In this document: piece by piece, positions 21,602 to 55,138 of the stretch | Layout: every line of letters starts with the position of its first letter | How positions within the stretch are numbered: the first letter of the stretch is position 1 | Assembly (NCBI RefSeq): GCF_964213995.1 | Contig: NW_027590121.1 | Span: 2,666,001 to 2,730,000, forward strand | DNA length: 64,000 bases | DNA from: Mustelus asterias | Taxonomy: Eukaryota | Direction: 5' to 3' | The notes under the pieces: generated by a model | Database searches by the model: none | Seen by the model: only the letters and a program-made list of their open reading frames with translations | What the model was told of the DNA's origin: nothing | Position numbers and translations under genes: made by a program

Positions 21602-21714
21602 CGTGCTGGGCTGCCAGCTGAGGGAGTGGGGGAGGGGACTTTGGAAAATCTCTTCCCATCATTTTCTTCCAAGTCCCGCAGTTTGATTTGAAACAGAACA
21701 GCTTCTGTTTGTAG

Positions 21715-22140: not shown

Positions 22141-22157
22141 ATCCTCTGGACAACATC

Positions 22158-22297
22158 GTATTTCTCATTTTATGTTTTTAAGTTTCCTTTGTACTTTGAT
22201 TTCTGTTCGGGCTGTTCCCCCTCCTTTTTGGGGAGCTGCCCCTTTTACTTTGTCCTGATTTAATCTGAGTTTGTTTACTTGGTTTGACCGAAAAAGA
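22158..22297 (+). mobile_element. Tx1-type LINE 3' UTR fragment with 10-bp TSD
   Basis: Matches 38365-38500; GGACAACATC at 22148-22157 and 22298-22307. Confidence 0.8.
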
Positions 22298-22658
22298 GGA
22301 CAACATCTGTGAGGAAAACACTTTCTTTCCCCCCCTCGGAAATACAGAGACAGAGAAATTCTCTGGAACTGGAATTAGAGCCAAATATACTGAGGGGGAA
22401 ATGTTTGTGATTTTGTGGAACCTGTTTTTATTGTCTGAGCTTTTTAAAGTGTAATTTATCTTGTCTATTCAAATACTGTTTCTTAATGAATGATTCAGTG
22501 ATGTTAATTTTAGATTAATTTTGAAAGTAAAAATGTTTAAAAATGAAACATTGTCTTTTAGTTTATTCCATTGGGATTTGTGGGAATTTGTTTATTATAA
22601 GGTGACCATGAAGATCGTAACAACATTGATATGTCTGGTGTTGTTATATGGTGCATAT

Positions 22659-22858
22659 GATGTGGAGATGCCAGTGTTGGACTGGGGTGGGCACAGTAAG
22701 AAGTCTCACAACACCTGGTTAAAGTCCGACAGGTTTATTTGGAATCACGAGCTTTCAGAGCGCTGCTCCTTCTCACCTGATGAAGGGGCAGCGCTCTGAA
22801 AGCTCGTGATTCCAAATAAACCTGTTGGACTTTAACCTGGTGTTGTGAGACTTCTTAC
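22659..22858. mobile_element. Penelope-derived fold-back insertion
   Basis: Inverted arms, one with the extra ~35-nt tail; 14-bp TSD TATATGGTGCATAT (22645-22658, 22859-22872). Confidence 0.9.
22773..22809 (+). ncRNA. Minimal type I hammerhead ribozyme motif
   Basis: TCAC-CTGATGA-A-GGGGC(AGC)GCTCT-GAAA-GC-TC-GTGA. Confidence 0.75.
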
Positions 22859-23547
22859 TATATGGTGCATATTAGGTACGTTATTTATGGATTTGTATTA
22901 GTTGATTTTGTTTAATTCCAGAATAGTATTGTAACCACACTGTATATTTTCCAGTCAAAGAGTCAGCAGAGCACAAGATAAATCAATTCAGCAGCTTGAG
23001 TCCATGCCAAGTCTCTGTCGGGGAATCCACTCAGTGCCATTTTTCCTCGATATTCCTGTTCCCCAGTACGTTTAATTCCTTCAAGTGCCCGACCAATTTT
23101 ATTTTGAAATCACTGGTCGTCTCCACTTCCACCACTCTCATCGTCAGTGAGTTCCAGAACATGATTGCTTGCTCCCTAAGTCAAGTTCTTCCGCACCCAT
23201 CTGTATCTCTAATCATGTAATAGAGTTCTGAATATTGCATACATTTTTAGTCCACTAAATATGCTAATTTTTTATATGCTGAGACACGAGCCTGTGTGAA
23301 GATTTCAGGAATATGTGTCCTGTACATGAAACAGTCAGCACGGATCTGTCGATTAGGACGAATCAGCACTCTCAGGACAATGTCTATTTCAGGTCCAGCA
23401 AAGTGAGAATGGAGGGAGAGTGTTTGGGATGGAGATTTACAAATTTTCAAGAATGAGAGGAAAGAATGTTCCACAGAAACTAGAATTGTCTGTTCTGAGT
23501 TTTTATCCTGTACTGACAGCAATGATTTTTGTGAATTTCTTTCACAG

Positions 23548-24830
23548 GCTATTAGAAGGGGAGAATTTACAGACACAAATCTCAACAAACATGACGTTAG
23601 GATCTGACAGAGTCACACAATTATTCAGGATCTGAATACCATCGGCATTTGAAACTGGAATGGGAAATGTTTGTCTGTTCCTTCAAACTGTTTAAACATC
23701 AGTGTGACTGGAAAATCACTGAGACACATTCACTCGAGTGAGAGTATTCCAGTGAACTGACTGTGGAAAGAGCTTTAACCAGTTACACAGCCTGGAAAAG
23801 ATTGAAGGATTCACAGTGAGGAGAGAGACCATGTATGTGTTATCTATGGGATCAAACCTTCATCTGAACCTGCAAATGTACAAAGACACGCAGACCATGG
23901 AAATGTAGGGACTGTGGGAAGGGATTCAATTGTCCCTCGAAGCTGGAAACCCTTCGATGCAGCCACACTGTGGAGACACTGTTCACCTGCTCTGAGTTTG
24001 GAAGGGGATTTCGTGATTCATCCACCCTGAGGAATCACCAGCGACTTCACATCAGGGAGAGGCCATTCACCTGCTCTGAGTGTGGGAAGAAATTCAGCGA
24101 TCCGTCTGCCCTGCTGACACACCAGCGGGTTCACAATGGGGAGAGACCATTCACCTGTTGTGTGTGTGGAAAGGGATTCACTCAGTCATCTACCCTGCAG
24201 AACCACCAGCGATTTCACACGGGTGAGGGACTGTCCCCCTGCTCAGAGCGTGGGAAGGGATTCACTCACTCATCCCTCCCGCTGACAAACCAACGCATTC
24301 AAACTGGGCCGAGGCCATTCATCTGCTCCGAGTGTGGGAAGGGATTCACTCAATTATCTAGTCTGCTGAGACACAAACGATTACACACTGGGAAAAGGCC
24401 ATTCATCTGATGTGTGTGTGGGAAGTGACTCAGTCAATCATCCAGTCTGCTGGAATACTGAGGCACCTCCCCCAATAAGAAACCTGTTCAATGCTCTGAC
24501 TGTGGGAGCTGCTTTAAAACCTGAGCCTACCTGAGGGTCGACCAGCGCATTCACACTGAGGAGACCCCGTTCAGGCGCTCTCACTGTGTAAAGAGGTTTA
24601 GAACATCATCTGACCTACTGAAACATCAGGGAATTCACACTGGGGAGAGACCCTGATCATTCCCATTCACTTTCAGCGATTTCTCATAAAACCTACCAAA
24701 TTGGAAGCTTCTGCCTGAAATTTTATTTTCCCTTCATTTCCAAACTGAGACCATTCACCTGTTCAGTGTGTGGGAAAGGATTCACTTGTTCAACCAAGCT
24801 GCTGAGACACCATGGCAGTCACACCGATTA
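23548..24830 (+). pseudogene. Degenerate C2H2 ZNF pseudogene
   Basis: Acceptor TTTCACAG, fossil leader, deletion at the start (ACCATGGAAATGTAG), ORF 23970-24410 with ~5 fingers, further broken fingers. Confidence 0.85.
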
Positions 24831-24858
24831 GTGATCTTTTGGATTCTCTGCCTGTGGG

Positions 24859-25340
24859 TGTTAACTATATCAATAGAGGTTAAATTTATTCAAATGGAGG
24901 GCATTGATTAGACAGTTATAATGAGCAGGTACAAAGTGGGACTCACTAATATAACTTGGAGTCAGAGTTGAACCTGTAATGTTTGATTCTGTGAATAAAT
25001 CTAGACCAAATAAAGATTGACTCCGCCCCAAGGCTGTCAGGATTATAACATGGTAACAGAAAATGCTTGTCTCATGGTGAAGGTTGGAAACTAAAAGAAA
25101 GTATATTTCAGACAGAAACTTCCAATCCCAGCAGCTTTTGTGAGAAATGACTGAAAGGCAGTGGGAATTGTCAGGGTCTGATTACCTGCTGATGCTCTCG
25201 GAGTCTGAACCTTACAACCAGTGGAAGAATGAAATGGCGATGTGGACACGGGTTACATCCCGATCAAGGAGGAAACAAGATCTGGCCTTGGCATCGTCAC
25301 TTCCTAACACAAGGATAATCAGCAACAAAGCATTTTCTGA
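24859..25340 (+). mobile_element. LTR retrotransposon 5' remnant (192-bp LTR, PBS, gag start; Copia/GalEa-like)
   Basis: TGTTA...TAACA (24859-25050) with AATAAA, followed at once by TGGTAACAGA; ORF 25147 YNQWKNEMAMWTRVT..KQDLALASSLP is gag-like. Confidence 0.6.
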
Positions 25341-28300
25341 TCAGCCAAACTGCAAGTTGATACCTGCACTGGCACGGATGATTCATGTAAAGAATTCACT
25401 TCAGGTGGTTGGAGGGTAGAATCCCTGTCAATTGGTCTATGGGAGAAATCCCTAATTCCCCTCTGTGCCGGGCGATCGCCCTCCTGCTTTAAAGGGATAC
25501 AATTAGTTCCATTTTCAGTCATCAATTATCTGATTGTTCCATGAAAAGAATTGCTCGAAGCAACAAATTATTGGAGATACCAGAAGAGGGTTTCTTCATG
25601 TGTAACGTTTGGACTGAAGAAGAAAAACCATCTTTTTCTTCGATTTGTTTTGCAACACTGTGTGAATTTTTGCGATCCCGGTCAGGACTGTTAACGTTTG
25701 CAGAGAAATTCGAACACCCGGTGATTAACTGAAAGAATTACATCACAAGATTCCACATTGTTAAACAAAAACAAACTTTACTGTATGTTTAAATAAAATT
25801 TAAAAAGACAACACCACAAATTGAATACAATAAAGATTTATGATATAAACCTAGTTCTGTTTTTTTACCTCACCCCAAGAGTTTCTTTATACTTAATATC
25901 TTGAAGTTTCATTCACTTCTGTTCCTCGGACCATCCCAAAGGTATGTCAAAGCTCTCAATTCACTTTAATTCTCCCCAGTACTTCAGATCTTCTCCAAGC
26001 TCCAAGAGTTTATGGGAGTCCATCCATTATCTTTTCATTAAACAAGCCTCCAATTTTCCTTTAAGCTCTCAAACTGTGGACTCCTCAGTCCAAACATGAG
26101 CTTCACTGCATTCTTGCTGAGGGATTTAAATGTTGGAAACACCCCTGGTTTCTAATGGTCCTCTCAGCTTCTAGTCCCACAGCTGGTTCACAGCTCCTGA
26201 TCCCACAACTGGTGGCTTCCAAGCTAACTGCAGACTGTCCGCTGTCTATCTGTGGAACCAGGTCATTGATTGGAAAGGACTCAAAAGGTTACGGGGAAAA
26301 GGCAGGAGAATGGGATTGAGATTTATCAGCCATGATCGAATGGCACAGCAGATTCGATGGGCCGAATAGCCTAATTCTGCTCCTATATCTTATGGTCTAA
26401 TTCTAACCAAGGCTCCACCCTGAATCACATATCCCCATGGTAACAGAGACCAGGTGGAATGTCCGACAGATATTTTGCTTCAAAACTAAACCCTTTTTCC
26501 CTGAGCTCTGCATGAAGAATTCACCGAACAAAAACAGTACAATAATTGTCAGACCCAATGTCTCCAGCTAAAAGATCCAGCTGACCTTTTACAGTTCTTA
26601 CCTCTCGAGTTTTGACTTCTTAAACCAACATGGGCCATGCTTTGTGACTGCGAATTCCCTGAGGGTGTTTTTGTCAGATTCTCAATCCAGGTTTTCCATT
26701 TTTTAAAAGCAATTCTTGCAACTAATTCATATTTCTAAAACATAGGAATTATAAAATTAGATTTCTGTAACAAAAACAGGAAAAAATGAAAATGTATCAC
26801 CTTCATAATATCCCATTTAGAATATTACAATATACAACATGCTGTATATCTTAACAACAGCCATGATCTTATTGAATGGCGGAGCAGGCTCGAAGGGCCA
26901 AATGGCCAACTCCTGTTCCTAAATCCACTGTTTTCCTATGTTGATCTATCTTATAACCTGCAACAGACATAATAATCCCTCCATTGTCCACTTCACATTC
27001 ACAAGTCCAGCTTGGTAACAGCACACTGCTGGGTTCCATGTCCAGGAATTCAGTCCACTGAAGATGGAAATTACTGCTTGCAGTCTTTTCTGACGGTTTT
27101 CTTCTTACAATAATTATAATCCAAAGTTCCTCCTGCAAAAGGAGAGTCTTCATTGCTGTTCAGTTGTGAATTTTCAAGTTCTATTTTGAAAACAGTCTGT
27201 ACAGAGTTCACATTTTGAAATTCATTTTCTTCCATGTTTGTAGTTCCTCCATTGTTTAAATCCAGAGACAATATTCCAGTCAATTCCACATTGAAACCGA
27301 CTTCTTCTTGCTCAGTTATAGCTGATTCCTTTATTGTCCAGGACAATATATTCACAATCTCTTTAAAACAGGAATTAAACATTCCCATTTGATTCCAGAC
27401 AGTAACATATTCTGTTGGTTTGTTCTTTATTGTCAATGTCAGGCTGGGGTTCTCCTTGGAGCAAAGGAGGTTGAGGGGAGATTTGATAGAGGTGGACAAG
27501 ATTCTGAAAGGTTTAGATAAGGTGGACAAAGAAAAGCTGTTCCCATTAGCTGAAGGGACAAGGACGAGGGGGACACAGATTTCTTGTTTTGGGTCAGAGA
27601 TGCAAGCGGGGAGGGGAGATGTGAGGAAGAATATTCTGATGCAGCGAATGGTAATGACCTGAAACTCGCTGCCTACGAGGGTGGAGGAAGTGGAGACAAT
27701 AAACAATTACAAAGGAAATTGGATGAGCATTTGGGATGTTCCAAACAGAACGAAGAACAAAGAAAATTTTGTTTTCTCAAAGAAAACAAAAAAAACAAAA
27801 AAAAAACAAAGAAAATCCATCAAGACATCATTTGACTGAGTTTGGCAGAAAGGGACCGACACAGGGTTGGAGTCGGTGGGATTTGGCGGGGGGGAACTCT
27901 CCACCGGTTGGGGATATACCAGGTACAGACGAGGATGGCTGTGGTTGTTGGAGGTCAGTCATCACTGCAAGGGTCACTGCAGGGTTCATCTAAAACTCTG
28001 CTGGCCAGGTTTAAACTCACATTAAGTGTTATTCCACTATCACCCTCGTGCACGATGATCCACCCAGTAAAGCAACAACTTAATATTAAAATTCTCATCC
28101 TTGGTTTCAAATCACTCCATGACCTTGCCTGTCCCAATATCTATAATCTCCGATAAGCCCCACAAACCTCAATATATGACACTGCTCTAATTCTGGTCTT
28201 TAGTTTGTCCCTGACCTTGCTTCACCATTGCAAGCTCTACCTTCAGTTGCTTAGGCTCCAACCTCTGGAATATCATCCCGACACGTCTCCAACTCTCCAC

Positions 28301-28489
28301 CTCGCTTTACTCCTTTAACACACCACTTAAAATCGACCACTTTGATCAAACTTTTGGTCATCTAACCTAATATCTTCTTTGTGGCTCAATATCATACTTT
28401 ATTTTACAATGCTCCCTGGATATTTTATTATTTCAAGGCGCTATATAAATATATTTTGTTGTTCCTCATGTCTCCTGGGCCTAATCATT

Positions 28490-30125
28490 TTCAGCGGCTT
28501 CATTAATTACCGTCTCCCCACCGTAGGGTGGGAAACAGGGATGTTCACTGATGATTGCAGTGTATATTACCATTCACAACTCTGAATACTGATGCTGCCC
28601 GCATGCAGCGCAGGACCAGGACAACATTCAGGTTGGAGCTGATTGTCAATTCATATTGATACCACATAATTATCAGGAAATATCTACTTCCAGCAAGAAA
28701 ATCTAACCATCTTCCCTTAATATTCAATGGCATTACCATCAGTGAATGTCCCACCAGCAATAACTTTGGGGTTACCATTGACCAGTCATTTAAATACTGA
28801 GGTTACAAGAGCAGATCAGAGGTTGGGAGTTTTGTGGCAGGTTACTCACTTAATGACTCCCCAAAGGCTTGCCATGATTCACAAGGTATAAACCAGGAGT
28901 ACGGTGGAATATTCCCTACCTGGATGAGTGTATCTGCAACAATTTTGTAGATCCTGTCCAGGACAAAGTAGCTCGCCTGATCAGCATCTCAAATACCACC
29001 TTAAACATTCACTCTCCACCATTAGCCCACAATGGTGGCAGTGTATCCCACATATTAGATGCACTGCAAGAAATCACCAAGGCTGTTTTCACAGCATTTT
29101 TGAAGTCGGAAAATATACCTCTATAGGCTGGTATGAGTCAAAATACAGTCATGCTTTATTCTCATAAGCTTATGGGAGAACTTGACCCCTTGAAAGCGGA
29201 AGCCAAAGTTCTCTCTGAACACAAGAAGCGTGGATATTTATACATCAGGGTTCCCAATACAAGTCATGAAGCAAAGTCCAGTTAACAGTCCTTGATCATA
29301 AATTATAGTTGCTTTAACAGCTTCTGATAGTCTCTGGATCATGGTTAGAGACCATCTGGTATCCTTGGGTCATAAAGCACAATTCTCCTGGTAGTCGAAG
29401 CCAAGGTGTCACCTCTGGTCCCCTGCTCTTCCCGCAGCGTTTCCTTTGAAGTGACTGAGTGCAACTGTTCCAGTGGGAGTCCTCCTTCAAACGGCCATTC
29501 TCGCACTCTACCATTTGCTTCCTTTGTTTAAATCATACACAAGCCTATGAGAAAGAAAGACTTATCCCCTAACATCTATATTTAACTGTCTGTTTTATCA
29601 GAATGATATAAACAAGCGAGGGAACCATGAACAAATGGCTTATACTAAAAGTAAAAGATGAAAGACATGAACAAATGGCTTATATTACTACCAGGAGCAA
29701 TATAAACAAAAAGGAGGCGAGCCACAAGGAAGGGCTATGTTTGTGATACATTCCAGGTACAAAGTTCAACCTTTTAGGCACAAAATACATTGAGTACAAT
29801 AAACATTAACCCTTTCCCTTCTTCAATGTTCCAAACCCTAACTTCTACCACTTGAAAAACAAGTGCAGCCAGCGTATGGGAATGCCACCATCTGCAAATT
29901 GTACTCCACATCACACACCATTCTGACTTGAAAATCAATCACCATTCCTTCTCTGTCACTGCATCAAATTCCTGGAACTCCCTAACAGCGTTGTGGGTAT
30001 ACCTACACCAAATGGATTGCAGCGATTCAAGAAAGTGGCTCACTTTCTTCACAAGGGCAATCAGTGATGCACAATGAATGTTGGCCTTGCCAGCCACATT
30101 CACATCCCCTGAAAGAATTTTAAAA
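28490..30125 (+). mobile_element. Old degenerate LINE (CR1/L2 group), interrupted
   Basis: FINY-..-GMFTDDC RT remnant ~28500-28560; WNSL-type 3' region and tail shared with the second SINE family at ~29960-30120. Confidence 0.45.
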
Positions 30126-30227
30126 AATCCTCATCCCTGGTATCATTCTCAGCCATGAGGACTGCAGTTATCAATGAACAGCTCCGCTTTTGACTTTATG
30201 ATGGGGGGAGGGTCATTGGTGGAGCAA

Positions 30228-31480
30228 TGTCAAGACACATCTTAAAGTCACTATCGTATCTGCTTCCACTACCTTCCCCGGCAACGAGTTCCAGGCACCC
30301 ACAACCCTCAGTGTAAAAAACCTGCCTCGTACATCGGCACGGTAGCACAGTGGTTAGCACTGCTGCTTCACAGCTCCAGGGTCCTGGGTTCGATTCCCAT
30401 CTCGGGTCACTGTCTGTGTGGAGTTTGCACATTCTCCTCGTGTCTGCGTGGGTTTCCTCCGGGTGCTCCGGTTTCCTCCCACATCCAAAGATGTGCAGGT
30501 TAGGTTGATTGGCCAGGTTAAAAATTGCCCCTTAGAATCCTGGGATGTGTACATTAGTGGGTAAATATGTGGGGGTAGGGCCTGGGTGGGATTGTGGTCG
30601 GTGCAGACTCGATGGGCCGAATGGCCTCCTTCTGCACTGTAGGGTTTCTATGATTTCTATGATTTAAACCTTGCCCCTCACACCTTAAACCTATGCCCCT
30701 GGTAATTGACTCTTCCACCCTGGGAAAAAGCTTCTGATTATCCACTCTGTCCATGCCCCTCATAATCTTGTAGACTTCTATCAGGTTGCCCTCCTCAACC
30801 TCCGTTGTTCCAGTGAGAACAAACCACGTTTCTCCAACTTCTCCTCATAGCTAATGCCCTCCACACCAGGCAACATCCTGGTAAATATTTTCCGTACCCT
30901 CTCCAAAGCCCCCACATCCTTCTGGTAGTGTGGTGACCAGAATTGAACACTAGATTCCAAGTGCGGTTTAACTCAGGTTCTATAAAGCTGCAACATGACT
31001 TGCCAATTTTTAAACTCAATGCCCCGGCCGATGAAGGCAAGCATGCCGTATGCCTTCTTGACTATCTTCCCCACCTGCATTGCCACTTTCAATGACCTGT
31101 GTACCTGTACACCCAGATCCCTCTGCCTATCAATACTCTGAAGGGGTCTGCCATTTACTGTATATTTCCCATCTGTATTAGACCTTCCAAAATGCATTAC
31201 CTCACATTTATCCAGATTAAACTTCATCTGCCATCTCTTCGCCCAAGTCTCCAACTGATCTATATCCTGCTGTATCCTCTGCCGGTCCCCATCGCTATCC
31301 GCAATTCCACCAACCTTTGTGCCGTCCACAAACTTACCAATCAAACCAGTTACATTTTCCTCCAAATCATTTATATATATTACAAACATCAAAAGTCCCA
31401 GCACTGATCGCTGAGGAATGTCACTTGTCACAGCCCTCCATTCAGAAATGTACCTTTGCACTGCCAACCTCTGTTTTCTT
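30228..31480 (-). mobile_element. CR1 LINE 3' part (RT), with nested HE1 SINE at 30336-30664 (+)
   Basis: ORFs 30973-31518 and 30554-30763; paralogous to 62865-63930, which lacks the SINE. Confidence 0.9.
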
Positions 31481-31718
31481 CTGACTAAATATCTCGAAAC
31501 TTCCTCACACCCTGTCACTCTGTGATCCTTGTGACATTTGAAACCAGGTATTCACAAAAAGACTCAAAGAGCATCAGCCCACTGGAGGCTGAGACCGGCC
31601 AGTCCAGCACAAAGAAACCCTCTGACCCTTCCCATTGACCAACTGTGAGAATGAACAAAATACAGTCCTGGATGCAACTGAGAGCAGAAACAATAACAGC
31701 AGAATCCTACCCCGGGAA

Positions 31719-32561
31719 TCACTCGTGAACTTGTTGATGTCTCAGCAGCTGGGATGAAACTCTGAATCCCTTCCCACACAGAGAGCAGGTGAACGGCCTC
31801 TCCCCAGTGTGAACTCGCTGGTGTATCCTCAGGTGGGATGACCGAATGAATCCCTTCCCACACTGAGAGCAGGTGAACGGTCTCTCCCCAGTGTGAACTC
31901 GCTGGTGTCTCTGCAGGTGGGATGATCGAGTGAATCCCTCCCCACATTGAGAGCAGGTAAATGGTCTCTCCCCAGTGTGAACTCGCTGGTGTGACTGCAG
32001 GTTGGATGACCAAGTGAATCCCTCCCCACACTGAGAGCAGGTGAATGGCCTCTCCCCAGTGTGAACTCGCTGGTGTGTCTGCAGGCTGGATAACTGAGTG
32101 AATCCCTTCCCACACTGAGAGCAGGTGAACGGCCTCTCCCCAGTGTGAACTCGCTGGTGTCTCTGCAGGCTGGATAACTCAATGAATCCCTTCCCACACT
32201 GAGAGCAGGTGAACGGCCTCTCCCCAGTGTGAACTCGCTGGTGTGTCTGCAGACTGGATAACTGAGTGAATCCCTTCCCACACTGAGAGCAGGTGAATGG
32301 CCTCTCCCCAGTGTGAACTCGCTGGTGTCTCAGCAGGTGGGATAACCGAGTAAATCCCTTCCCACACTGAGAGCAGGTGAATGGCCTCTCCCCAGTGTGA
32401 ACTCGCTGGTGTGTCCGTAAGCTGGATAACTGATTAAATCCCTTCTCACACTGAGAGCAGGTGAATGGCCTCTCCCCAGTGTGGCTGCGCCGATGAACTT
32501 CCAGCTCTGATGGGGCTCTGTATCCCTTCCCACAGTCCACACATTTCCATGGTTTCTCCAT
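31719..32561 (-). CDS. C2H2 zinc-finger protein, finger-only, 10 intact fingers (280 aa)
   Basis: GCACCATGG start, MEKPWKC, uninterrupted 28-aa repeats with HTGERP linkers. Confidence 0.9.
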
Positions 32562-33235
32562 GGTGCAGGTGACCTTGCCTCTTTCTTGGGTGGACAATTA
32601 GTTGAAACTTCGTCCACACACAGAACAAGATTACAGTCTCGACCCACTGTGAATGGTGTGATATTTATTCAGACTGTGTAACTGGTTAAAGCTCTTTAGT
32701 CAGTGCATTGGAACACACTCACTCAAGTGTGGCAGAGTGTTGATGCTTTTTCACTCACACTGACATTTCAAATCTTTTCAAATCGACAGACTGGACAATC
32801 ATTTCTCCTCCTGGATTCAAAGTTCGATGATATTGAGGTCCCAAGGGATATGACTCTGTCACGTCTAGACGTGATGTTTGAGATTTCAGCCTGTGATTCC
32901 TCTTTCAAGATCCTGTAAAATGAGTTTCCAAAAGTCATCAGTGTCAGTGCAGGATAGAAATTCAGAACAGACAATTTCTATGGAACATTCTTTCCTCTCT
33001 CATTCCCCAAAAGCTGTAAATCTCCATCCCACACACTCTCTCCCCATTCTCAGCAGGTCTGGCAGCATCTGTATGGAGAGAAAAGAACTGATGTTTCAGA
33101 GCTTTGACAAAGGGTCATCTAGACAAGAAACATCAGCTCTTTTCTCTCCTTACAGATGCTGCCAGACCTGCTGAGATTTTCCAGCATTTTCCCTCCTGGT
33201 TTCAGATTCCAGCATCCGCAGTAATTTGCTTTTAT

Positions 33236-37870: not shown

Positions 37871-37876
37871 GGACAA

Positions 37877-38108
37877 TAGAATCATAGAAACCCTACAGCA
37901 CAGAAAGAGGCCATTCGGCCCATCGAGTCTGCACCGACCACAATCCCACCCAGGCCCTACCCCCATATCCCTACATATTTTACCCGCTAATCCCTCTAAT
38001 CTACGCATCCCAGGACACTAAGGGGCAATTTCTTTAGCATAGCCAATCAACCTAACCCGCACATCTTTGGACTGTGGGAGGAAACTGGAGCACCCAGAGG
38101 AAACCCTC
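37877..38108 (-). mobile_element. HE1-type SINE, 3' part
   Basis: Tail and part of the V-domain; abuts the Tx1 fragment. Confidence 0.88.
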
Positions 38109-38112
38109 GCAG

Positions 38113-38500
38113 AGAGGGGCGTGTCGGGATGGTGACCTCCTTGTGAACTTGCTCCTGGGCCTGGCAAAGCGCGCCATTTATCGGTCCAGGCAGCAGGCGA
38201 TCGAGGGGGCCATCCACCCTGACTGTCTGCCCCTCTACCGTGGCTACGTTCGCGGCCAGGTGTCCCTGGAGAGGGAACATGCGATGTCCATGGGTGCGCT
38301 TGACGCCTTCCGCCCCCATTGGGCACCGCAGGGGTTGGGGTGTGTTATCGACCCTAATAATCACATTGTGATTTGATGTTTTTAAGTTTCCTTTCTACTT
38401 TGATTTTTGTTCGGGCTGCTCCCCCTCCTTTTGGGGAGCTGCCCCTTTTACTTTGTCCTGATTTAACTTGAGTTTGTTTATTTGGTTTGACCTTAAAAAA
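38113..38500 (+). mobile_element. Tx1-clade LINE ORF2 C-terminus plus 3' UTR
   Basis: DLLVNLLLGLAKRAIYRSRQQ..F..W.PQG..* (to 38376) resembles Tx1/L1 ORF2 ends; T-rich UTR ending GACCTTAAAAAA. Confidence 0.7.
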
Positions 38501-39100
38501 GGCCAACATCTGTGAGTGAAACACTTTTTCTTTTCTCCCCCTTTCCATTTCTTTTCTCATTCCGGGGGAAATTGGGGACTTGCAGCAACTGAAGGGAAAG
38601 GAAGTGAATCCAGTCTGTATATTCCATACATTGTTAGTCCAGTCAGATAGACATATATCTGTCTGGCAGCCTGCATGGAGATTTCCAGCTCTCTCTGTCC
38701 AGGACAGGAAGCAGTGAGCATGGATCTACCAATCAGCCTCAATCAGAGGGTGAATATTAGATACAGCAGAGTGAGAATGGAGGGAGAGTGTGTGGGATGG
38801 AGATTTACAGCTCTTGGGGAATGAGAGAGGAAAGAATGTTCCATAGAAACTAGAATCGTCTGTTCTCAATTTCTATCCTGTACTGACAGTGATAACCTTT
38901 GTAAACTCCTTTTACAGGATATCAGAAGTTGAGGATTTTACAGACAGAAATCTCAAACCAAACATCACATCAACATCTGACAGAGTCACTCAATTCATCG
39001 GGACCTGAATATCTTCGGTCTTTGAATCCAGAAGGAGAAATGTTTCTCTGTTCTGTCTGCTTTAGCAGTCTTTAAACATCAGTGTGACTGGAACAGGACT

Positions 39101-39102
<2 letters not shown>

Positions 39103-39150
<48 letters not shown>
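39103..39150. repeat. (AC)n microsatellite inside the fossil leader
   Basis: Expansion of the GACACACAC (D-T-H-T) codons seen in paralogues. Confidence 0.95.
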
Positions 39151-39154
<4 letters not shown>

Positions 39155-39309
39155 CAACTGAGATTTTCCCATGCAGTGACTGTGGAAAGAGCCTCCCAGT
39201 TACACAGCCTGAAAAAATATTGCACCATCACAGCAGGGCACTATAATCTTGTTCTGTGTGAGACTTCAACTGATGGTCAAACCTGGAGCAACACAAGGAT
39301 ACCTGCACC

Positions 39310-40152
39310 ATGGAGAAACCGTGGAAATGTGGGGACTGTGGGAAGGGTTGCAAAACCCCCTCTGAGCTGCAAATTCATCGACGTATTCACACCGGAGAGA
39401 AGCCATACACCTGTTCTGTGTGTGGGAAGAGGTTCACTCGGTTATATCATCTGCAGCGACATCGGTTGGTTCACACTGGAGAAAGAGCATTCATCTGCTT
39501 TGAGTGTGGGAACGGATTCGCTCATTTACCCGATTTGCAGAGACACCAGCGCGTTCACACTGGAGAGAGACCATTCATCTGCTTGGTGTGTGGGAAAGGA
39601 TTTATGCAGTTATCCAATCTGTCAAAACACAAAGTCACTCACAGCAATGAGAAACCCTTTAAATGCTCTGACTGTGGAAATGGTTTCAAAAGCTCTCGGG
39701 AACTGACGATCCACCAGCGCATTCACACTGGGGAGAGACCGTTCAGCTGCTCTCACTGCACAAAGACATTTAGAACATCATCCCACCTGCGGGAGCACCA
39801 GCGAATTCACACCAGGGAGAGACCGTTCACCTGCTCTGTGTGTGGGAAGGGATTCACTCATTCATCCAGCCTGCTGAGTCACAATCTCACTCACACCCAG
39901 GAGAGACCCTTTAAATGCTCTGACTGTGGCAGTGGTTTCAAAAGTTCTCGGGATCTGGTTATCCACCAGCGCACTCACACTGAGGAGAGACCGTTCAGCT
40001 GCTCTCACTGCACAAAGAGATTTAGAACATCATCCAGCCTGCGGGAGCACCAGCGAGTTCACACTGGGGAGAGACCGTTCACCTGCTGTTTGTGTGGGAA
40101 GGGATTCACTCAGTCATCCAGCCTGCGGAGACACCAACGAGTTCACGAATGA
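39310..40152 (+). CDS. C2H2 zinc-finger protein, finger-only, 10 intact fingers (280 aa)
   Basis: GCACCATGG start; MEKPWKC; exon 1 donor 38512, exon 2 ~38703, acceptor ~38917. Confidence 0.92.
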   Translation: MEKPWKCGDCGKGCKTPSELQIHRRIHTGEKPYTCSVCGKRFTRLYHLQRHRLVHTGERAFICFECGNGFAHLPDLQRHQRVHTGERPFICLVCGKGFMQLSNLSKHKVTHSNEKPFKCSDCGNGFKSSRELTIHQRIHTGERPFSCSHCTKTFRTSSHLREHQRIHTRERPFTCSVCGKGFTHSSSLLSHNLTHTQERPFKCSDCGSGFKSSRDLVIHQRTHTEERPFSCSHCTKRFRTSSSLREHQRVHTGERPFTCCLCGKGFTQSSSLRRHQRVHE

Positions 40153-40527
40153 TGACAGTGGTTGGATGCTGCTATTAATCACATCCAGGACTGAACCATG
40201 TTCATTCTGACAGTTGAAGTGGGAGGGTCGGAGGGTTTCTTTCTGCTGGACTGGCCGGTCTCACAACTTTGCTTCTCTGAGCCTGGGAGAGCACATTTCC
40301 ACTGAAATGATCCACAAAAGCTGATGAAGGACATTTATTTATCCTGGATAATAAATATTTTTCCTACCGCTACAGGTAGATCTGAAATAAATACAGAAAG
40401 GACTGGAAAAATGCATTAGGTCTGGCAACATTTATGGAGAGAGAAACAGTGTTAATATTTCACACTACTGGATTGGGAATCAATCTGGTAAACCTCCTCT
40501 GAACTGCTTCCATGGTATTTATAAAAT

Positions 40528-40845
40528 GGGACAGCATGGCAGCACAGTGATTAGCACTGCTGCATCATAACACCAGGGACCCAGGTTCAATTCCAGCCCG
40601 GGTCACTGTCTGTGTGGAGTTTGCACATTCTCTGCGTGGGTTTCCTCCGGGTGCTCCGGTTTCCTCCCACAGTCCAAAGATGTGTGGGTTAGGTTGATTG
40701 GCCATGATAAATTGACCTTTAGTGTCAGGCGGACTGGCTGGAGTAAATGCATGTGGTTATGGGAATAGGGCCTGGATGGGATGGTGTTTGGTACAGACTC
40801 GATGGACAGAACGGCCTCTGTCTGTACTGTAGGGATTCTACGATC
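40528..40845 (+). mobile_element. HE1-type V-SINE (older); further copies at 41295-41535 (+), 41875-42168 (-), 46540-46800 (+), 46995-47350 (+)
   Basis: tRNA head and V-domain in each. Confidence 0.85.
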
Positions 40846-40976
40846 CTTTGTTTAATAGGAGACAAAAACTGCAGCCACTATTCAAGATGCAGTTTCAGCA
40901 ACACCCTGTATAACTGAAGCAGAACATCTTTACTTCAATGTTCAATTTCTCTCAGAATAAAGGATTGCATTCCATA

Positions 40977-42990
40977 TGTAAGAATTTTGAATTGTTTGAA
41001 CTCAGATTTATGGGGTTCACTTGTTTACAACAACCTCCCTAATCATAACTCACCCAGGTTCCAGTGACTTAACCATATGGCAAGAAAGAACACTTTAAAT
41101 GGTGAATTCAGAAAGTTTATTCACCATTAAAAATGTAACAAGTCAGAAAGATAAAAAATCAAAGTATCGATCAACAGTAAAGGAGAAAGCTTAACTTTAA
41201 CTTCCCTCCATCCCTCTCAGACCAGGACATGAAGTGGTGGCTCTGAAAACACGGATAACTTGTAAAATCAACAGCTCCCAACACATTTCTGTAGGACACA
41301 GTGGTTCGCACTGCTGCCTCACAGCACCAGAGACCCGGGTTTGAGTTCCACCTTGGGTCACTGTCTGTACAGAGTCTGCACATTCCCCCTCTGTGGGTTT
41401 TCTCCCACAGACCGAAGGACTTGCTGGTTATACATAGAGCATGCTAAATTCTCCCTCAGTTTACCCGAACAGGCGCCAGAGTGTGGCGACTGGGGGATTT
41501 TCAGAGTAACTTCATTGCAGTGTGAATGTGTGACACTAATAAATAAACTTTAAAAAACCTTGAACTTTTAAAAACTTTTGCCAAATTGGTTTCTCGAATC
41601 CCCTTTTTTATACTTTCAAAATGTAGAAAGCCCAGCTCAGCCAATTGTTGGGAATTAGCCAATTGGTCTATGACTTGTCAATAATGAAACTGGTTTGGTT
41701 TTTTAGCTAGTTACACACATTGTCTGAATTTTAAGACAATTCTTTCTCTCAAACGATATCTCTTAGTTTGGGGTTGCCTGAGTGTTGACCAATAATTGGT
41801 TAACATCAGTCATTCAATGTTGAGACATCTTGATCAGGAGCTGATTCATTCCCTCCAGTCAAGGTTAACAAAGTATTAAAGTTTATTTATTAGTGTCACA
41901 AGTAGGCTGACATTAACACTGCAATGAAGTTCCTGTGAAAATCCCTTAGTTGCCACACTCTGGCGTCTGATCGGATACACTGATTGAGAATTTAACATGG
42001 CTAACCCACACGTCTTTTGGAGTGTGGGAACAAACAGGAGCACCTGGAGGAAACCCACGCAGACACGGGGAGAACGTGCAGACTCCGCATAGTCAGCCAA
42101 GCCAGGAATCGAACCCAGGTCCCTGGCACTGTGAGGCAGCAGTGCTCACCACTGTGGCACCGCGCCACGCTAACAAGTCTTGTTATCTGTTTTTTTCTAT
42201 TCTGTTATCCTCCGAAGGGAACATTTTATTATCCCCACAACATTTTAACCGTTCTTAATGTTTATAATTCTGAAAGTTATAAACTTTTGTGTTCAAATTT
42301 ACATTTCCAGCCTTTCTAACATCTGTATTAATTAATCATTTATTCTTTAATTGTCTCTCAATTCAGGCTGTCCATTTAACTAATCTCCTGCTTTACAATT
42401 GTGGGAACTTCAGTCCACAGATAAGGTAGTCAAACGTGTTGTTAAAAGCACGATGTTCTTCATATAAATAAATAACAAAGTTTAAAAATCATTGGCAAAC
42501 TAAAGGAAACAGGAGCATTGGAACCAGCCTGGACTTGCAGACTGAAACCCCGCCCAAAGGCCGCACGTGCTCAGAAGGGAGAAAGGTTGAGAAGAACACT
42601 CTGTAACACTTCTCCTCCCCTTAAATTTCAATCCTCCATCAGGACAGAAATACAACAAAGTAATGTCTTTAACAATACGGAAGTCTGTCAGGAGCTTTGT
42701 GGTTGCATTGCAACCTGTACAATACCACTGGTAAATCTTGTAATGGTGTTTCTGGAATGGGAGGTGAAGAGGTAGTTTGAGAATCTGTACATGAACATTC
42801 CTCTTCCACTCCCACAGCAGAGTCAACTGGCAAAGCTGGAACCATTTCCTGGTGAACATCCACAGCAGCATGACCCTCTGCCATGTTCTCAGTAATGGTT
42901 GCTGATTCTGAAACTGTTCCTGACTCGGGGTCACACCGCAAGTGAATATGGTCTTGGTGGCTATGCTTAAAATTTCCACATTTAACTGGT
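40977..42990 (-). mobile_element. Gypsy-like LTR element 3' remnant (integrase tail, PPT, LTR with nested SINEs)
   Basis: ORF 42669-43127 ends ..KAPDRL; polypurine tract AAGGGGAGGAGAAG directly before TGTTACAG at 42608; putative LTR end ..CTTACA at 40977. Confidence 0.5.
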
Positions 42991-44913
42991 TCCCATGAAT
43001 CCTCAATTATAAAGCAAAATAGACATAAGTTTCTGGGCGATTTAAAAACAAATGAACTGTCTGCTGAAAGGGTTAACTTTTCTACAGAACCTAAAGGGGT
43101 GGGGAGTGAGCAGAAAAAACATGGCACACAATTACGTCACTTTACATAATTTTTAAAATCTTCTCGAACAACAAAACAAACTTAATTTTAAACTTCATCG
43201 ATTATTCTTTTTGTTTTCTTCCTCAACCGAATAATTTTAATTTGATCAGTTTTTGTTTGGGATGGGTCACTTCTGTTCTTTATAAACTGATTCACTCGTT
43301 TTGTTCGTTCGACATGAGAATCAGAACCCAGCCTTTATCATCCTTATCCTTTTTCTCCTTCTGCCACCACTCCCTCTGTTTTGCGGGAGGGTCGTGGGGA
43401 TTCCAATCAGAACTAATCATTTTATCATAAAAGTAAAATACTGCGGATTCTGGAATCTGAAACAAAAATAGAAAATGCTGGAAAGTCTCAGCAGATCCGA
43501 CAGCTTCTGTGGAGAGAGAATAGAGCCAATGTTTCCAGTCTGGGTGACCCTTCATAAGAGCTCTTCTGAAGTGTAATCCAGACTCAAAACATTGGCTCTA
43601 TTCTCTTATCATTGTATCGATAAGTTTCTTACTGTTAGTTTCCAAATGGCAGGTAAGAGACCCATCAGGTCCCCACTCGAGCTCTGATTTTTCACTGGCC
43701 ATGCTTGGATAGGATTATAAACATTAGAATCTACTCTCAGAGGTCCGCTTTTCAATCCAGTGCTACTTGGAGTATACCGTCACTTCACCGACTATCAGGT
43801 CATAAATGTATAATAAAATAATTCAAATAATGCCTGGGAACGCTTTGAACCAACTACCTATCATCGTTCGTTGATTGGTCAGACCCCCTTTTTACAGATT
43901 CAAGTATCTCAGCCGCTGAACACCAGCCGATCCTGGAATAAGTTTAATTCTAATTCATTCTGAGTAAATATTCTCACCAGGTCCTCTGTCGGGGCCCTGC
44001 TAAGCAGCTTTAATGGTTCGTGATTGCAGAAACTGAGCAGTCACAGGAATGTGGTCAAGATAGTCCAGTCCCATAATGCCTCACATTCAATCAGCAGTCC
44101 TTCAATTATAACAGAATATGTGGCTGTATGTAGCTGCCTCGGCCACGATCAGCGCCAACACTGCCTTCCTGAACTGTTACAATGCCTGAGGTGTAAGTAC
44201 ACCCACAGTGCTGTTAGGGAGGGATTTCCAGCTACACATTCCAGACTTTCACTAACTGTAGGTGGATACCAGATTGATACATTTCATTCAACTGCACCCA
44301 AGCTGAGTTATTTCTTTATTGTCCAGGAAAGTATATTCACAATATCTTTAAAACAGAAATTAAACATTCCCATTTAATTTCAGGTATTAACATATTCTGT
44401 GAGTTTGTTCTTTAATGTCGATGTCAGGCTGGGGTTGTTTCCCTTGGAGCAAAGGAGGTTGAGGGGAGATTTGATGGAGGTGAACAAGATTCTGACAGGT
44501 TTAGATAAGGTGGACAAAGAAAAGCTGTTCCCATTAGCTGAAGGGACAAGGATGAGGGGGACACAGATTTATGGTTTTGTGTCAGAGAGGAAGGGGGGAT
44601 GTGAGGAAGAATATTCTGATGCAGCGAATGGTAATGACCTGGAACTCGCTGCCTACGAGGGTGGAGGAAGTGGAGACAATAAACAATTACAAAGGAAATT
44701 GGATGAACATTTGGGGGGTTTCAAACAGAAATGCTGACTAAATATCTCTTAACCTCCGAGCACCAGCCACTGGAGGCAAAGTCGTGAGACCTGCCAGTCC
44801 AGCAGAAAGAAACCCTCTGACCCTCCCCATTGACCAACTGTGAGAATGAACAAAATGCAGTCCTGGATGTAATTGAGAGCAGAAACAATAACAGCAGAAT
44901 CCAACCCCTGGAA

Positions 44914-45420
44914 TCACTCGTGAGTTTGTTGGTGTCTCAGCAGGTGGGGTGAGACTCTGAATCCCTCCCCACACTGAGAGCAGGTGAACGGCCTCTCCCC
45001 AGTGTGAACTCGCTGGTGTTTCTGCAGCCTGGAAGAGTTTGTGAATCCCTTCCCACGCTGAGAGCAGGTGAACGGCCTCTCTCCATTGTGAACTCGCTGG
45101 TGTTTCTGCAGGGTGGTTGAACGAGTGAATCCCTTCCCACACTGAGAGCAGGTGAACCGCCTCTCCCCAGTGTGAACTCGCTGGTGTCTCTGCTGGTTGG
45201 ATAACTGACTGAATCTCTTCCCACACACAGAGTAGGTGAAGGGCCTCTCCCCAGTGTGAATTAGTTGGTGTGTCCGCAGTTCGGATGACTGAGTGAATCC
45301 CTTTCCACACACACAGCAGCTGAAGGGCCTCTCCCCAGTGTGACTGCGTCGATGAATTTCCAGCCGAGATGGGCACATGTATCCCTTCCCATAGTCCCCA
45401 CATTTCCACGGTTTCTCCAT
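44914..45420 (-). CDS. C2H2 zinc-finger protein, 6 fingers, three with a lost Cys (decaying)
   Basis: GCACCATGG start; CGDY, FTYSVC, CSQR substitutions. Confidence 0.7.
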   Translation of the reverse strand: MEKPWKCGDYGKGYMCPSRLEIHRRSHTGERPFSCCVCGKGFTQSSELRTHQLIHTGERPFTYSVCGKRFSQLSNQQRHQRVHTGERRFTCSQCGKGFTRSTTLQKHQRVHNGERPFTCSQRGKGFTNSSRLQKHQRVHTGERPFTCSQCGEGFRVSPHLLRHQQTHE

Positions 45421-46128
45421 GGTGCGGGTGTCCTTGTGACTCTGTAGTTTAAACAATCAGTTAAATCTCACACAGAACACGGGTACAATCTCTCCCCGCT
45501 GTGAATGCTGCGATGTATTTTCAAGCTGTGTAACTGGTTAAAGCTCTTTCCACTGTGCACTGGAGCACTCTGACTCAGGTGTGTGTGTGTGTGTCTTGCG
45601 GATTTTCCAGTCACACAGATGCTTAAAATCTTCAGAAGCAGACAGAACAGAGAAACATTTCCCCTTCTAGATTCAAAGGTCAGTGATATTCAGGTCCCGA
45701 TGAATTGAGCGATCCTGTCAGATGTTGATGTGACATTTGGTTTGAGATTTCTGTCTGTAAGTTCTCACCTTCTGATATTCTGTAAAAGGAATTTACAAAA
45801 GTCATCAGTGTCAGTACAGGATAGAAATTCAGAACAGACAATTCCAGTTTCTATGAAACATTCTTTTCTCTCTCATTCCCCAAAAGCTGTAAATCTCCAT
45901 CCCACACACTCTCCCTCCATTCTCACTCTGCTGTATCTAATATTCACCCTCCCAATTCTCCTGAAGGTGCTGATTGAGGCAGATTGACAGATCCATGCTC
46001 ACTGCTTCCTGTCCTGGACACAGAGAGCTGGAAATCTCCATGCAGGCTGCCAGACAGATATATGTCTATCTGACTGGACTAACAATGTGTGGAATGTACC
46101 GACTGGACTCACTTCCTTTCCCTTCAGT

Positions 46129-48028
46129 GGCTAAGGATGGACAAGTCACCAGGACCCAATGAACTGCACGCTAGCTTTTTAATGGAGGTTGCTGAAGGGA
46201 TAGTGGAGAATTCTGTTGAAATTTTTCGTAACTTGCTAGATTCCGGGAAAGTATCGGAAGATTGGCAATCAGCCAATGTGACTACCTTGGTCAAAAAAGG
46301 AGAAAGGCAGAAGGCAGGGAACTATAGGCCAGTTAATTTAACATCTATTATTGGCAAGACGCTGGAGTCAATAATCAAAGAGCAAATAGCCAATCATTTA
46401 GGAAAGCTGAATATAATCAAACCTCGTCAACATGGTTCTATGAAAGATAAATCATGTTTGACAAATTTGCTTGAATTGTTTGAGGTTGTAAGAAGGAGGG
46501 TAGATCGAGAGAAATCTGTGCTTGTAGTTTATTTAAAAAGGGCGCCACAGCAGCACAGTGGTTAGCACTGCTGCTTCACAGTGCCAGGGACCCGGGTTCA
46601 ATCCCGGCCTTGGGTGACAGTCTGTGTGGCGTATGCGCATTCTCTCCATGTCTGTGTGGATTTCTGAGTTCTCCAGGTTCTTCCCACAGTCCAAAGATGT
46701 GCGGGTTAGATTGAATGACCATGCTAAATTGCCCCTTTGTGTCCCAATAGATGTGGATTAGTGGGGTAAAAATGTAGGGCTACAGGAATAGGGCCTGGGA
46801 AAGATGAGTCGAGCGTTGGGGAAGATGCAATAAAGTCACCCCTCTGTCTTCAAAACCTGGCAAATGGAGTTTAAAGTGGGGAAGTGTGAGGTCATGTATT
46901 TCAGTAGGAGGAATCAACAGGAAGATTATCTAAATGGGGAGAGGCTGCCGGTGAGTGAAGTACAGAGGGACCTTGGTGTTCTTGTGCATGAATCGGGCGG
47001 CACGGTAGCACAGACGGGCGACACGGTAGCACAGTGGTTAGCACTGCTGCTTCACAGCTCCAGGGTCCCGGGTTCGATTCCCGGCTCGGGTCACTGTCTG
47101 TGTGGAGTTTGCACATTCTCCTCGTGTCTGCGTGGGTTTCCTCCGGGTGCTCCGGTTTCCTCCCACAGTCCAAAGATGTGTGGGTTAGGTTGATTGGCCA
47201 GGTTAAAAATTGCCTCACAGTCCTGGGATGCGTAGGTTAGAGGGATTAGCAGGTAAATATGTGGGGGTAGGGCCTGGGTGGGATTGTGGTCGGTGCAGAC
47301 TCGATGGGCCAAATGGCCTCCTTCTGCACTGTAGGGTTTCTATGATTTCTAGGTCACATTCAGTCTGTTTCTCTCTATGAATCACAAAAAGCGAGCAGGC
47401 AGGTCCCACACGAGTTAAGAAGGAAAATGGCATTTTGGCTTTTATTGCAAAGGGGTTGGAGTTTAAAAACAGGGAGGTTTTGTTGCAACTGTACAGTGTG
47501 TTGGTGATGCCTCACCTGGAATAATGCATACAGTTTTGATCCCCTTATCTAAACAAGGATATAGTAATATTGGACATAGTCCAAAGGAAATTCACCAGGC
47601 TAATTCCTGGGATAGGAGGGTTGTCCTATCACGAGGGAGTAAATTGTCAAGGTCTGTGTTCCTTGAAGTTTTGAAGACAAAGGAGTTATTGAAACATTTC
47701 AGATCCTGAGGGGGCTTGACAGGGTAGATGGTGAGATATTTTCAAACAAAATAAAGGGTCAGTCATTTAAAACTGAGGTGTGCAGGAATTTCTTCTCACA
47801 GAGGATGATGAAGCTCTGGAATTCCCCGCCCCAAAGGGTGGTGGAGGCTGGATCGTTAGAAGTATTTAAAGTGGAGGTGGATACATATTTGATAGATCGG
47901 GGAATAGAGGGCTATGGGGAAATGGCACAGTAAAGGAGTTGAAACCAGCATCAGTCAGCTATGGTCGGATTGAATGGCGGGACAGGCTTCAAGGGCCTGG
48001 TGGCCGCTCCTGCTTCTATTTCTCGTGA
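46129..48028 (+). mobile_element. Degenerate CR1 LINE with nested SINEs in intron 1 of the 45420 gene
   Basis: DKSPGP..NYRPV in ORF 46089-46565; splits CCCTTCAGTTGCTGC (intact at 3660) with TCAGT on both sides. Confidence 0.85.
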
Positions 48029-48159
48029 TCAGTTGCTGCAAGTCAACAATTTCTCCCAGAATGAGAAACAAAATGGAAAGGGGGAGAAAAGAAACTGTTT
48101 TACTCACAGATGTTGAAGACAGAAGGAAGTTTGAGCCTGTCTGAAGCTCAATCTTCATT

Positions 48160-48600
48160 CAGAGAGAAGCAGCAGCAGCTTTGCTGGGCAGGAGTGAGCA
48201 GCTGAACAAGCTCATTGTGCAACTTCCGCATTCAGACAATGGGGGAGCTCTGATTGGCTGGAGGACCCGAGTACTGCCGGTCCTCCAGAGTTCCCATTGG
48301 TCAATCCCACGCAGACAGACAATGAGGGGCGGAGCCCCACGTGGGGGTGGGCGGGACTTTGTCCTCCAGCCACGCTGAGCTGTTGTCCAATGGGAAAGGC
48401 TGGAAGACCCGGACAGACAATGGTCAGTGCGCCGGCTGTGTCCCGGGCCCCGCCCCACACCCGCACATGCGCATTCCCCCAAAACCCGCACATGCGCACT
48501 TCTGATTCACTTCCGCTCACCAGCTCTGGCCAATAGGAAGACTTGGAGGACCGGAAAGACCGTGGTCCTCCAGCCAATCAGAGCGCAGGCTTTGTGTGAA
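48160..48600. promoter_or_regulatory. CpG-island bidirectional promoter (pair 4)
   Basis: Inverted GGTCCTCCAGCCAATCAGAG units (~48248, ~48565), CGCACATGCGCA x2, GGGGCGGAG, ACTTCCGC; inverted exon-1 modules on both sides. Confidence 0.78.
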
Positions 48601-48799
48601 TGAAGATTGAGCTTCAGACAGACTCAAACTTCCTTCAGTCTCAACCTAAAAGAGGCCAACATCTGTGAGTAAAACACTTTCTTTTCTCATTCTGGGGGTA
48701 ATTGGAGAATTGCAACAACTGAAGGGAAAGGAAGTGAATCCAGGGAGGGTGCAGACTCAGGAAAGGTTGGCCCAGGTCCCTCTCTCTCTTAAAGAAATT

Positions 48800-55071: not shown

Positions 55072-55138
55072 TGTTTGAGGTCATTAGGTTACATTGAAAC
55101 TTCATATGTTTCATATGAAGCAATTTTTAAAAGCAGTA

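Follow-up and report, generated by a model that had tools for sequence, protein, structure and literature searches.

Repeated insertion of a Tx1-clade LINE into exon 1 of clustered zinc-finger genes in Mustelus asterias

The 64-kb stretch of DNA analysed here (the window; C89:2666001-2730000 of the 3.68-Gb Mustelus asterias genome, L- and C-numbers denoting genomic loci and chromosomes or contigs, respectively) holds a tandem cluster of C2H2 zinc-finger (ZNF) genes, whose upstream exons are short and whose arrangement is frequently head to head. Exon 1 of these genes was found to be a strong insertion hot spot for a long interspersed element (LINE) that is assigned to the Tx1 clade by its protein sequence. 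The three copies in the window are independent insertions, and full-length copies are almost confined to the exon-1 niche, although most 3' ends of the family lie elsewhere in the genome. On balance, we consider it probable that independent Tx1 LINE insertions, full-length almost only in the presumed non-coding ZNF exon 1, are transcribed from the host promoter, find their site through RNA pairing and are spliced out of the host message.

Independent insertions in exon 1

As listed below, the same LINE 3' end was present at three ZNF paralogues of the window and three further target sites were empty, at the positions that a first-pass annotation of this DNA had claimed. No further copy was found within the 64 kb, in agreement with that annotation.

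22148..22157, + strand: target-site duplication, left copy; perfect 10-bp repeat, with an empty allele in L183
22158..22297, + strand: 5'-truncated Tx1 LINE 3' end in ZNF exon 1; ~123 bp of 3' untranslated region (UTR) and a few non-matching 5' bases
22298..22313, + strand: target-site duplication, right copy, then the putative exon-1 donor GTGAG
37877..38112, - strand: 5'-truncated antisense repeat joined to the 5' end of the 38113 copy, which we take to be a tRNA-type short interspersed element (SINE); its left flank terminates in GGACAA
38113..38502, + strand: Tx1 LINE 3' end with the final 87 codons of open reading frame (ORF) 2 and the 3' UTR; C-terminus as in the intact ORF2 P0001
38503..38517, + strand: target and putative donor 3' of the 38113 copy
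48646..48655, + strand: 10-bp stub of the element 3' terminus; 4-bp repeat CAAC on the left, similar stubs at L193, L202, L213 and L222
3739..3748, - strand: empty target, type A, not followed directly by a GT donor
4281..4297, + strand: empty target, CCACATC variant, putative donor; one of 75 such variants genome-wide
48102..48118, - strand: empty target, type B, putative donor
48148..48170, - strand: upstream exon-1 site (TCTCTCTGAATG) of the type that the youngest subfamily uses; here without an insertion, filled at 127 places in the genome
23868..24410, + strand: C2H2 zinc-finger coding exon 3' of the 22148 insertion
39274..40152, + strand: C2H2 zinc-finger coding exon 3' of the 38113 insertion
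50957..51667, + strand: C2H2 zinc-finger coding exon 3' of the 48646 stub

The 140-bp insert at 22158-22297 is flanked by a perfect direct repeat (22148-22157 and 22298-22307) and shares 92% identity over 129 bp with the 38113 copy. Since the element terminates genome-wide in ...AAAAGAGG and the target proper starts at C/G/A-CAACATC, the two leading G may be element-derived, and the duplication would then be 8-10 bp. The empty allele of this paralogue type was found at L183:1160-1190, and at least 11 duplicates of the insertion exist as near-identical paralogues (L061-L071). As for the 38113 copy, all 30 best genomic matches retrieved share one end point beside the SINE. This copy is thus a single event amplified by segmental duplication, with at least 30 duplicates, a point that goes beyond the first-pass annotation. 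Stubs like that at 48646-48655, 8-19 bp long, are present at other paralogues. Of the empty sites in the annotation, those at 4281 and 48102 are followed by putative donors; the one at 3739-3748 lacks a GT after the target and is not a donor. Just 5' of the 22148 insertion, at 21713-22140, lies an 18-19 bp tandem repeat derived from the exon-1 motif, a shorter form of which is found in the empty allele L183.

The target pattern occurred 1,271 times in the genome, in clusters, and the CCACATC variants came in addition to these. None of the first 100 matches was on C1-C11, and nine of the 11 sites with 4 kb of downstream sequence showed ZNF motifs in sense. Two fixed positions of exon 1 are used: the older subfamilies are inserted immediately before C/GCAACATC, and the youngest, in a second finding beyond the first-pass annotation, ~45 bp upstream, immediately before TCTCTG. 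A hand count of 89 distinct junction strings gave at least 28 independent junction classes in which the upstream half of the exon directly adjoins the insert, the inserts being 8-7,213 bp long and accompanied by duplications of 4-14 bp or small target deletions. Independent 5' ends and target-site duplications, which had been named beforehand as support for targeting, were found. Under a model in which any S-C-A trimer is accepted, only ~0.01 insertions would be expected in the 1,271 target sites. Among the first 30 target sites, 10 carry the element or a stub and two carry a second family described below, one site having both, so that 11 of the 30 are occupied.

The per-site rate was ~2% at ZNF sites (28 of ~1,350), compared with seven independent insertions, among the rows classified, in 27,340 CR1 sites sharing the same 9-mer, which are hit ~80-fold less per site. 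That difference also fits an improbable alternative, in which tethering to promoters or open chromatin brings the element to germline-active CpG promoters with a 3-4 bp motif, the ZNF genes being the most numerous of such promoters. In addition, three of the youngest off-target copies (L074, L078, L088) are located in sequence that resembles the promoter or 5' UTR of other genes, with the motifs judged by eye. However, tethering does not account for the use of two exact nucleotides, nearly always in sense, when every promoter offers many S-C-A or TCTC words, and CR1 and satellite sites, too, receive more insertions than the trimer model predicts (7 versus 0.2). Promoter tethering probably contributes but is insufficient alone.

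To assess independence, a tree of the host flanks was built with one representative per junction class (23 filled and 41 empty of 119 sites). The filled and empty states need 18 changes on this tree, at least eight of which are forced by starred branches. Approximately unbiased (AU) tests rejected a single clade for the filled sites as a whole (p=3e-83) and likewise for the three copies of the window (p=1.1e-5). The latter rejection, together with the empty allele L183, indicates that the window copies do not stem from one ancestral insertion, an origin that the first-pass annotation had named as fatal to its claim. More generally, it is very improbable that there is no targeting at all and that one or a few ancestral insertions were spread through the ZNF clusters by segmental duplication, gene conversion and deletion. 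The duplicates of the 38113 and 22148 copies are of the kind that this explanation predicts, and the scatter of filled and empty labels on the host tree could be produced by conversion too. Nevertheless, it is contradicted by the rejected single clade, by the varied truncation points and duplication lengths, by the tRNA chimeras, two positions, three subfamilies and second family at the same spot, and by the 20 different flanks in which the host sequence continues from the very first base past the element. This explanation is already largely refuted.

The two exon-1 positions may differ in use between target variants. The old site was filled in three of 30 CCACATC sites and the upstream site in nine, versus 10 and none, respectively, of 30 canonical sites; these two sets of 30 were drawn from different regions, and a single event appears to underlie the three old-site fills. 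The 75 CCACATC ZNF genes (sampled as L382-L411) suggest a possible host escape that was followed by retargeting upstream. A 132-bp tandem array of element 3' end plus upstream target was seen at L289-L302 (C89:2431509-2433788), and arrays of 244-281 bp at L160, L184 and L186. An asymmetry between left and right duplications was considered as evidence of RNA templating at the junctions and rejected, since the loci had been chosen by their right-hand match.

Two other elements of the window were noted. A near full-length, frameshifted LINE ORF2 with endonuclease and reverse transcriptase (RT) regions, presumably of CR1/L2 type, lies at 8357-11375, with further fragments across the window. The ORF at 54661-55080, to which ORFs in L253 are similar, appears to us to resemble the end of a Penelope-type GIY-YIG endonuclease.

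The element, its full-length copies and its genome-wide spread

The element is ~7 kb long. Its intact copy L347, the kind of full-length copy whose recovery the first-pass annotation had proposed, encodes an ORF1 of 699 aa and an ORF2 of 1,297 aa with an apurinic endonuclease-like (APE) domain followed by the RT. ORF2 (P0001) matched the Pfam families Exo_endo_phos (7e-13) and RVT_1 (8e-37), and it was 48% identical to Xenopus laevis Tx1L (YTX2_XENLA, P0006) over 99% of its length, with 63% in the RT; the E value was 0 to Tx1L versus 4e-80 to human L1 ORF2. In an RT tree of 15 rows, without L1 outgroups, it fell into a starred five-row clade that includes Tx1L (support 100/99). These matches bear out the clade that had been proposed from the window alone. 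The nearest protein relatives by RT identity were from Hemitrygon (77%) and Heterodontus (64%). For ORF1 of L347, zf-CCHC was matched at E 0.0045, weaker than the Pfam cut-off, and the Pfam search gave no match for the 87-aa ORF2 fragment of the window or for the ORF1 of L259. The 5' truncations and the target-site duplications of up to ~16 bp are typical of target-primed reverse transcription.

Older full-length copies start with a tRNA-Val-like head, called as tRNA-Val by ARAGORN in L121, L134, L137 and L167 and as tRNA by Rfam in L137, and continue with a copy of the target and donor (seen in L137). The young copies start with a diverged ~60-nt piece of exon 1, which is followed by a decayed head. 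GTGAGT or G-GTGAG (the hyphen marking the expected donor cut) was present in 44 of 45 distinct heads, G-GTGAG itself in 41. At the same target, other tRNAs are joined to stubs or truncated elements, namely Cys in L125 and a tRNA in L333, and presumably also Gly-like ones; these fusions suggest that the tRNA-like head may have arisen by template jumping onto a pre-tRNA. Fused tRNA genes with their trailer precede truncated elements or stubs, in several cases precisely at the ZNF target, in L125:5779-5850, L130:2061-2154, L333:2462-2534, L210, L397, L168 and L046. ARAGORN typed Cys and Arg among such loci, and we take others to be Gly and Thr tRNAs and a U2 piece. In L150, L174, L185 and L187, an array of several tRNA-Val-like sequences resembling the element head was observed, with a truncated copy in a nearby CR1 piece.

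An ORF1 21-mer had 159 matches, which were concentrated on ZNF-cluster contigs; those on large chromosomes outside the clusters were mostly sister families of ~75-83% identity, together with a few off-target copies. Forty of the later-listed matches were retrieved, and 39 were usable (L369 was dropped, its motif being out of range). Thirty of the 39 belong to the young subfamily, and the 3' end is visible in 26. As many as 22 of these end at the upstream site and one ~10 bp upstream of the old site, so that 23 of the 26 end in exon 1 in sense; one lies antisense in a neighbouring exon 1 (L360), two have only their 5' junction at a ZNF promoter, and each of the 26 has one or more of its junctions in exon 1. 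The 22 copies were 98.6-99.7% identical to each other, yet they have 20 different host flanks. ORF2 was stop-free in 20 of the 39 loci, and tandem arrays of the element were frequent.

A very different distribution was seen for the 3' ends. An exact 24-mer of the element had 1,169 copies, on every large chromosome. Among the first 30 in genome order, an unbiased set from the two largest chromosomes (C1-C2), 29 had unrelated flanks, and the sole ZNF-flanked copy, L091, is a 3' transduction. A terminal 21-mer identified 1,587 element ends, 221 of which are followed by GGNCAACATC. When the first 100 rows of the latter were counted by hand, 80 shared a 21-mer spacer and 62 of 78 classified were of ZNF type or the element's internal target copy, which together give ~140 old-site exon-1 ends genome-wide. 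A further 127 ends adjoin the upstream exon-1 site, 15 of them in one 132-bp tandem array. Thus ~17% of 3' ends (about 1 in 6) lie in ZNF exon 1, as counted with exact patterns, which overlook mutated flanks and do not separate out duplicates. This is slightly less than the >20% of copies with one shared flank type by which Kojima (2015) defines a target-specific family (PMC4494074), the corresponding figure for young full-length copies being 23 of 26.

The first-pass annotation had called the element site-specific, and had itself counted unrelated 3' flanks in most copies against this. Such flanks were found in most 3' ends (29 of 30 on C1-C2 and ~5/6 genome-wide), and strict specificity was not upheld, whereas repeated independent insertion at one exon-1 nucleotide was (at least 28 classes). 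The family is target-preferring, not strictly site-specific. Best-match DNA searches, in which 30 of 30 hits lay at the target, were rejected as evidence of specificity, as the hits are mostly duplicates of single insertions, and were replaced by pattern searches listed in genome order; two GGNCAACATC rows (C103:1265030 and C104:1434833) were left out of the retrieved set.

Beside this dispersal, other features of the distribution weigh against the reading that we favour. A duplication of at least 8 bp was detected by a simple search in only nine of the 30 off-target copies; many loci are on unplaced contigs, and copy counts may include haplotype duplicates; a few ORF1-bearing copies are off-target (L225, L261 with intact ORF2, and L266); and the young copy L360 is antisense. 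Long copies in an ATCCA-type satellite were observed at L261 and L266 (also L241, L242, L250 and L251), one of them with intact ORF2, and L266 is preceded by what is presumably a 5S-rRNA-like piece.

The concentration of ORF1-bearing matches on ZNF-cluster contigs and the shortness of most off-target copies could also be explained by random insertion and survivorship, with long copies being purged elsewhere and persisting only in the ZNF clusters. We give this explanation hardly any credence: it leaves the exact nucleotide unexplained, and likewise the stubs of 8-50 bp that are enriched at the same position.

A second, non-autonomous family appears to be a partner of the element. It is 1.25-1.9 kb long, contains no recognisable ORF and has 218 end matches. 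It inserts at the same ZNF nucleotide, where a 14-bp duplication rebuilds GTGAGT at the 5' junction, and it is also dispersed, its other copies using a different repeated site that resembles a long terminal repeat (LTR) and that of a sister Tx1 family. No significant similarity to the Tx1 ORF2 was found (tblastn best E 0.06), and the partner had no Rfam match of its own. Examples were seen at L253:7754-9009, L333, L334, L337 and L340, also as tandem arrays, and elsewhere in LTR-like promoter sequence. Sister Tx1 families (L262, L263 and L264; 75-83% identical) lie outside the ZNF clusters; in L264 the copies stand in tandem, and the LTR-like piece between them bears CCAAT, TATA-like and AATAAA motifs.

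Transcription, splicing and choice of the site

The off-target flanks start with S-C-A, with C at position 2 in 29 of 30 and A at position 3 in 28 of 30, and are near random past position 4. In the unbiased set, the flank starts with C in all seven copies of the TT subfamily and in six of 23 of the TA subfamily (p=8e-4). Moreover, the flank word tracks age, being CCA in the oldest, GCA in the middle and TC in the youngest subfamily, and it equals the exon-1 flank of the full-length copies of each subfamily. The endonuclease of L365 is 236/238 identical to that of the youngest, TCTC-site copies, yet L365 stands at the old GCAAC site. Since the off-target flanks match the parent flank while the endonuclease barely changes, read-through RNA likely helps to choose the site. 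Read-through past the 3' end is seen in L091, which carries ~160 bp of ZNF flank, and in L273 (C3), a 3' transduction with the head of the next element, poly(A) and a duplication. In L273:1513-1700 (reverse strand), the poly(A) starts exactly at the expected donor cut, as though a 5' exon, once cleaved, had acquired a poly(A) tail and been retrotransposed. The exon-1 piece captured at young 5' ends and the 3' transductions fit transcription from the host promoter into the flank. The element is likely transcribed from the ZNF promoter, and it is likely spliced out of the host message through its own putative donor.

On this reading, the endonuclease would nick loosely in open promoter DNA, and the 3' flank carried on the element RNA would select the primer by pairing with the nicked target. 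Long matches, as in ZNF exon 1, would win per site, and short ones would account for the scattered insertions, most of them truncated. A copy that lands in exon 1 would gain a promoter and so found the next generation, while splicing from the donor within the element would link exon 1 with the ZNF coding exon, leaving the gene unharmed. There are precedents: L1 priming is aided by primer-template pairing (PMC3649969), and for R2, co-transcription with its target has been discussed (PMC4494074).

The main rival is protein-encoded specificity, in which the endonuclease, with the other ORF2 domains, recognises the exon-1 sequence as in Xenopus Tx1L, and the shift upstream reflects amino-acid changes. 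It has in its favour that Tx1L is the nearest named relative, that the endonuclease is described as the main determinant of where such elements insert (PMC4494074), and that older and young copies differ at several endonuclease positions, including some near the beta-hairpin, the importance of such loops being described in PMC1950540. The case of L365 speaks against it, however, as does an off-target consensus of only 3-4 bases that follows the parent flank. We regard this rival as unlikely, though still to be reckoned with.

Regarding RNA pairing and splicing, the evidence against is as follows. The subfamily flanks could reflect changes in protein regions other than the endonuclease, and recombination could account for L365. 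No RNA joint linking either putative donor with the coding exon was seen among the joints listed, beside which there are 200 more; they come from RNA of related species at an empty gene and are dominated by an intronic repeat, and are evidence in neither direction. In the related species, RNA depth was as high just past GTGAG as before it. The type-A genes have no GT at the target. No sequence carrying the element was on record as RNA, which is likewise neutral.

A bolder form of the proposal is put forward more tentatively, at somewhat short of even chances. The element would be an active, RNA-addressed vertebrate LINE that pairs through the parent flank and, its endonuclease scarcely changing, has shifted target three times inside ZNF exon 1; it would be a spliced-out passenger of the promoters of possibly transposon-repressing ZNF genes, and would deliver tRNA genes and the non-autonomous partner to the same nucleotide.

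Comparison with known elements and significance

The endonuclease of R2 is of a class different from the APE type. R2, in 28S rDNA, shares with the present element likely transcription from a host promoter with target sequence on its RNA (PMC4494074), but its target is an RNA polymerase I RNA gene and it primes without complementarity (PMC3649969), whereas the present element is APE-type and lies in an RNA polymerase II protein-coding gene. Tx1L resembles the present element in its APE-RT ORF2, in its RT clade and in repeated use of one multicopy target. That target is the DNA transposon Tx1D (PMC4494074, PMC6719617), of piggyBac type, whereas the copies described here are in clustered promoter/exon-1 units of ZNF genes, so that insertion into Tx1D, the mark of the Tx1L family, was not found; also unlike Tx1L, the present family has the bulk of its 3' ends outside the target. 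Keno, Kibi, Koshi, Tx1-Mar and other target-preferring Tx1 families belong to the same clade and likewise use multicopy targets, which comprise U2, U5, 5S, microsatellites, satellites and other transposons (PMC4494074). Tx1-Mar appears to mobilise the non-autonomous SINEU to its target (PMC4494074), as the present family appears to do with its 1.25-1.9 kb partner. The target list in the part of PMC4494074 cited here names no protein-coding gene family, nor does it name a tRNA-like head with donor motifs.

In the snap-velcro model of L1, priming is favoured when the final 4-10 bases of the target pair with the 3' end of the RNA (PMC3649969). L1 pairs via its poly(A), whereas the present element would pair via the transcribed host flank, and its preference would be inherited from the insertion site of the parent. 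A promoter-proximal niche is shared with mPing and similar elements, which prefer open chromatin upstream of protein-coding genes (PMC6719617); their preference is regional and extends over many genes, in contrast to a fixed nucleotide of one gene family. In the portions of the literature searched, most subscription papers and Repbase lying beyond that scope, no description was found of a non-LTR element that targets exon 1 of a protein-coding family or of the present shark family.

With three dated subfamilies that differ in flank, near-identical endonucleases and many intact copies, the shares of enzyme and of RNA-DNA pairing in LINE site choice become directly testable. If RNA pairing dominates, the element is a candidate for an RNA-addressable gene-insertion tool. 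The target lists consulted for sequence-preferring non-LTR elements comprise RNA genes, spliced-leader exons, microsatellites, telomeric repeats and other transposons (PMC8869645; PMC4494074), and a protein-coding gene family transcribed by RNA polymerase II would be a new class of safe harbour. ZNF genes of this kind are linked to transposon control in other animals (PMC10547256). With about one third of the first 30 ZNF sites occupied, the element may influence how a family of >1,300 genes evolves and is expressed.

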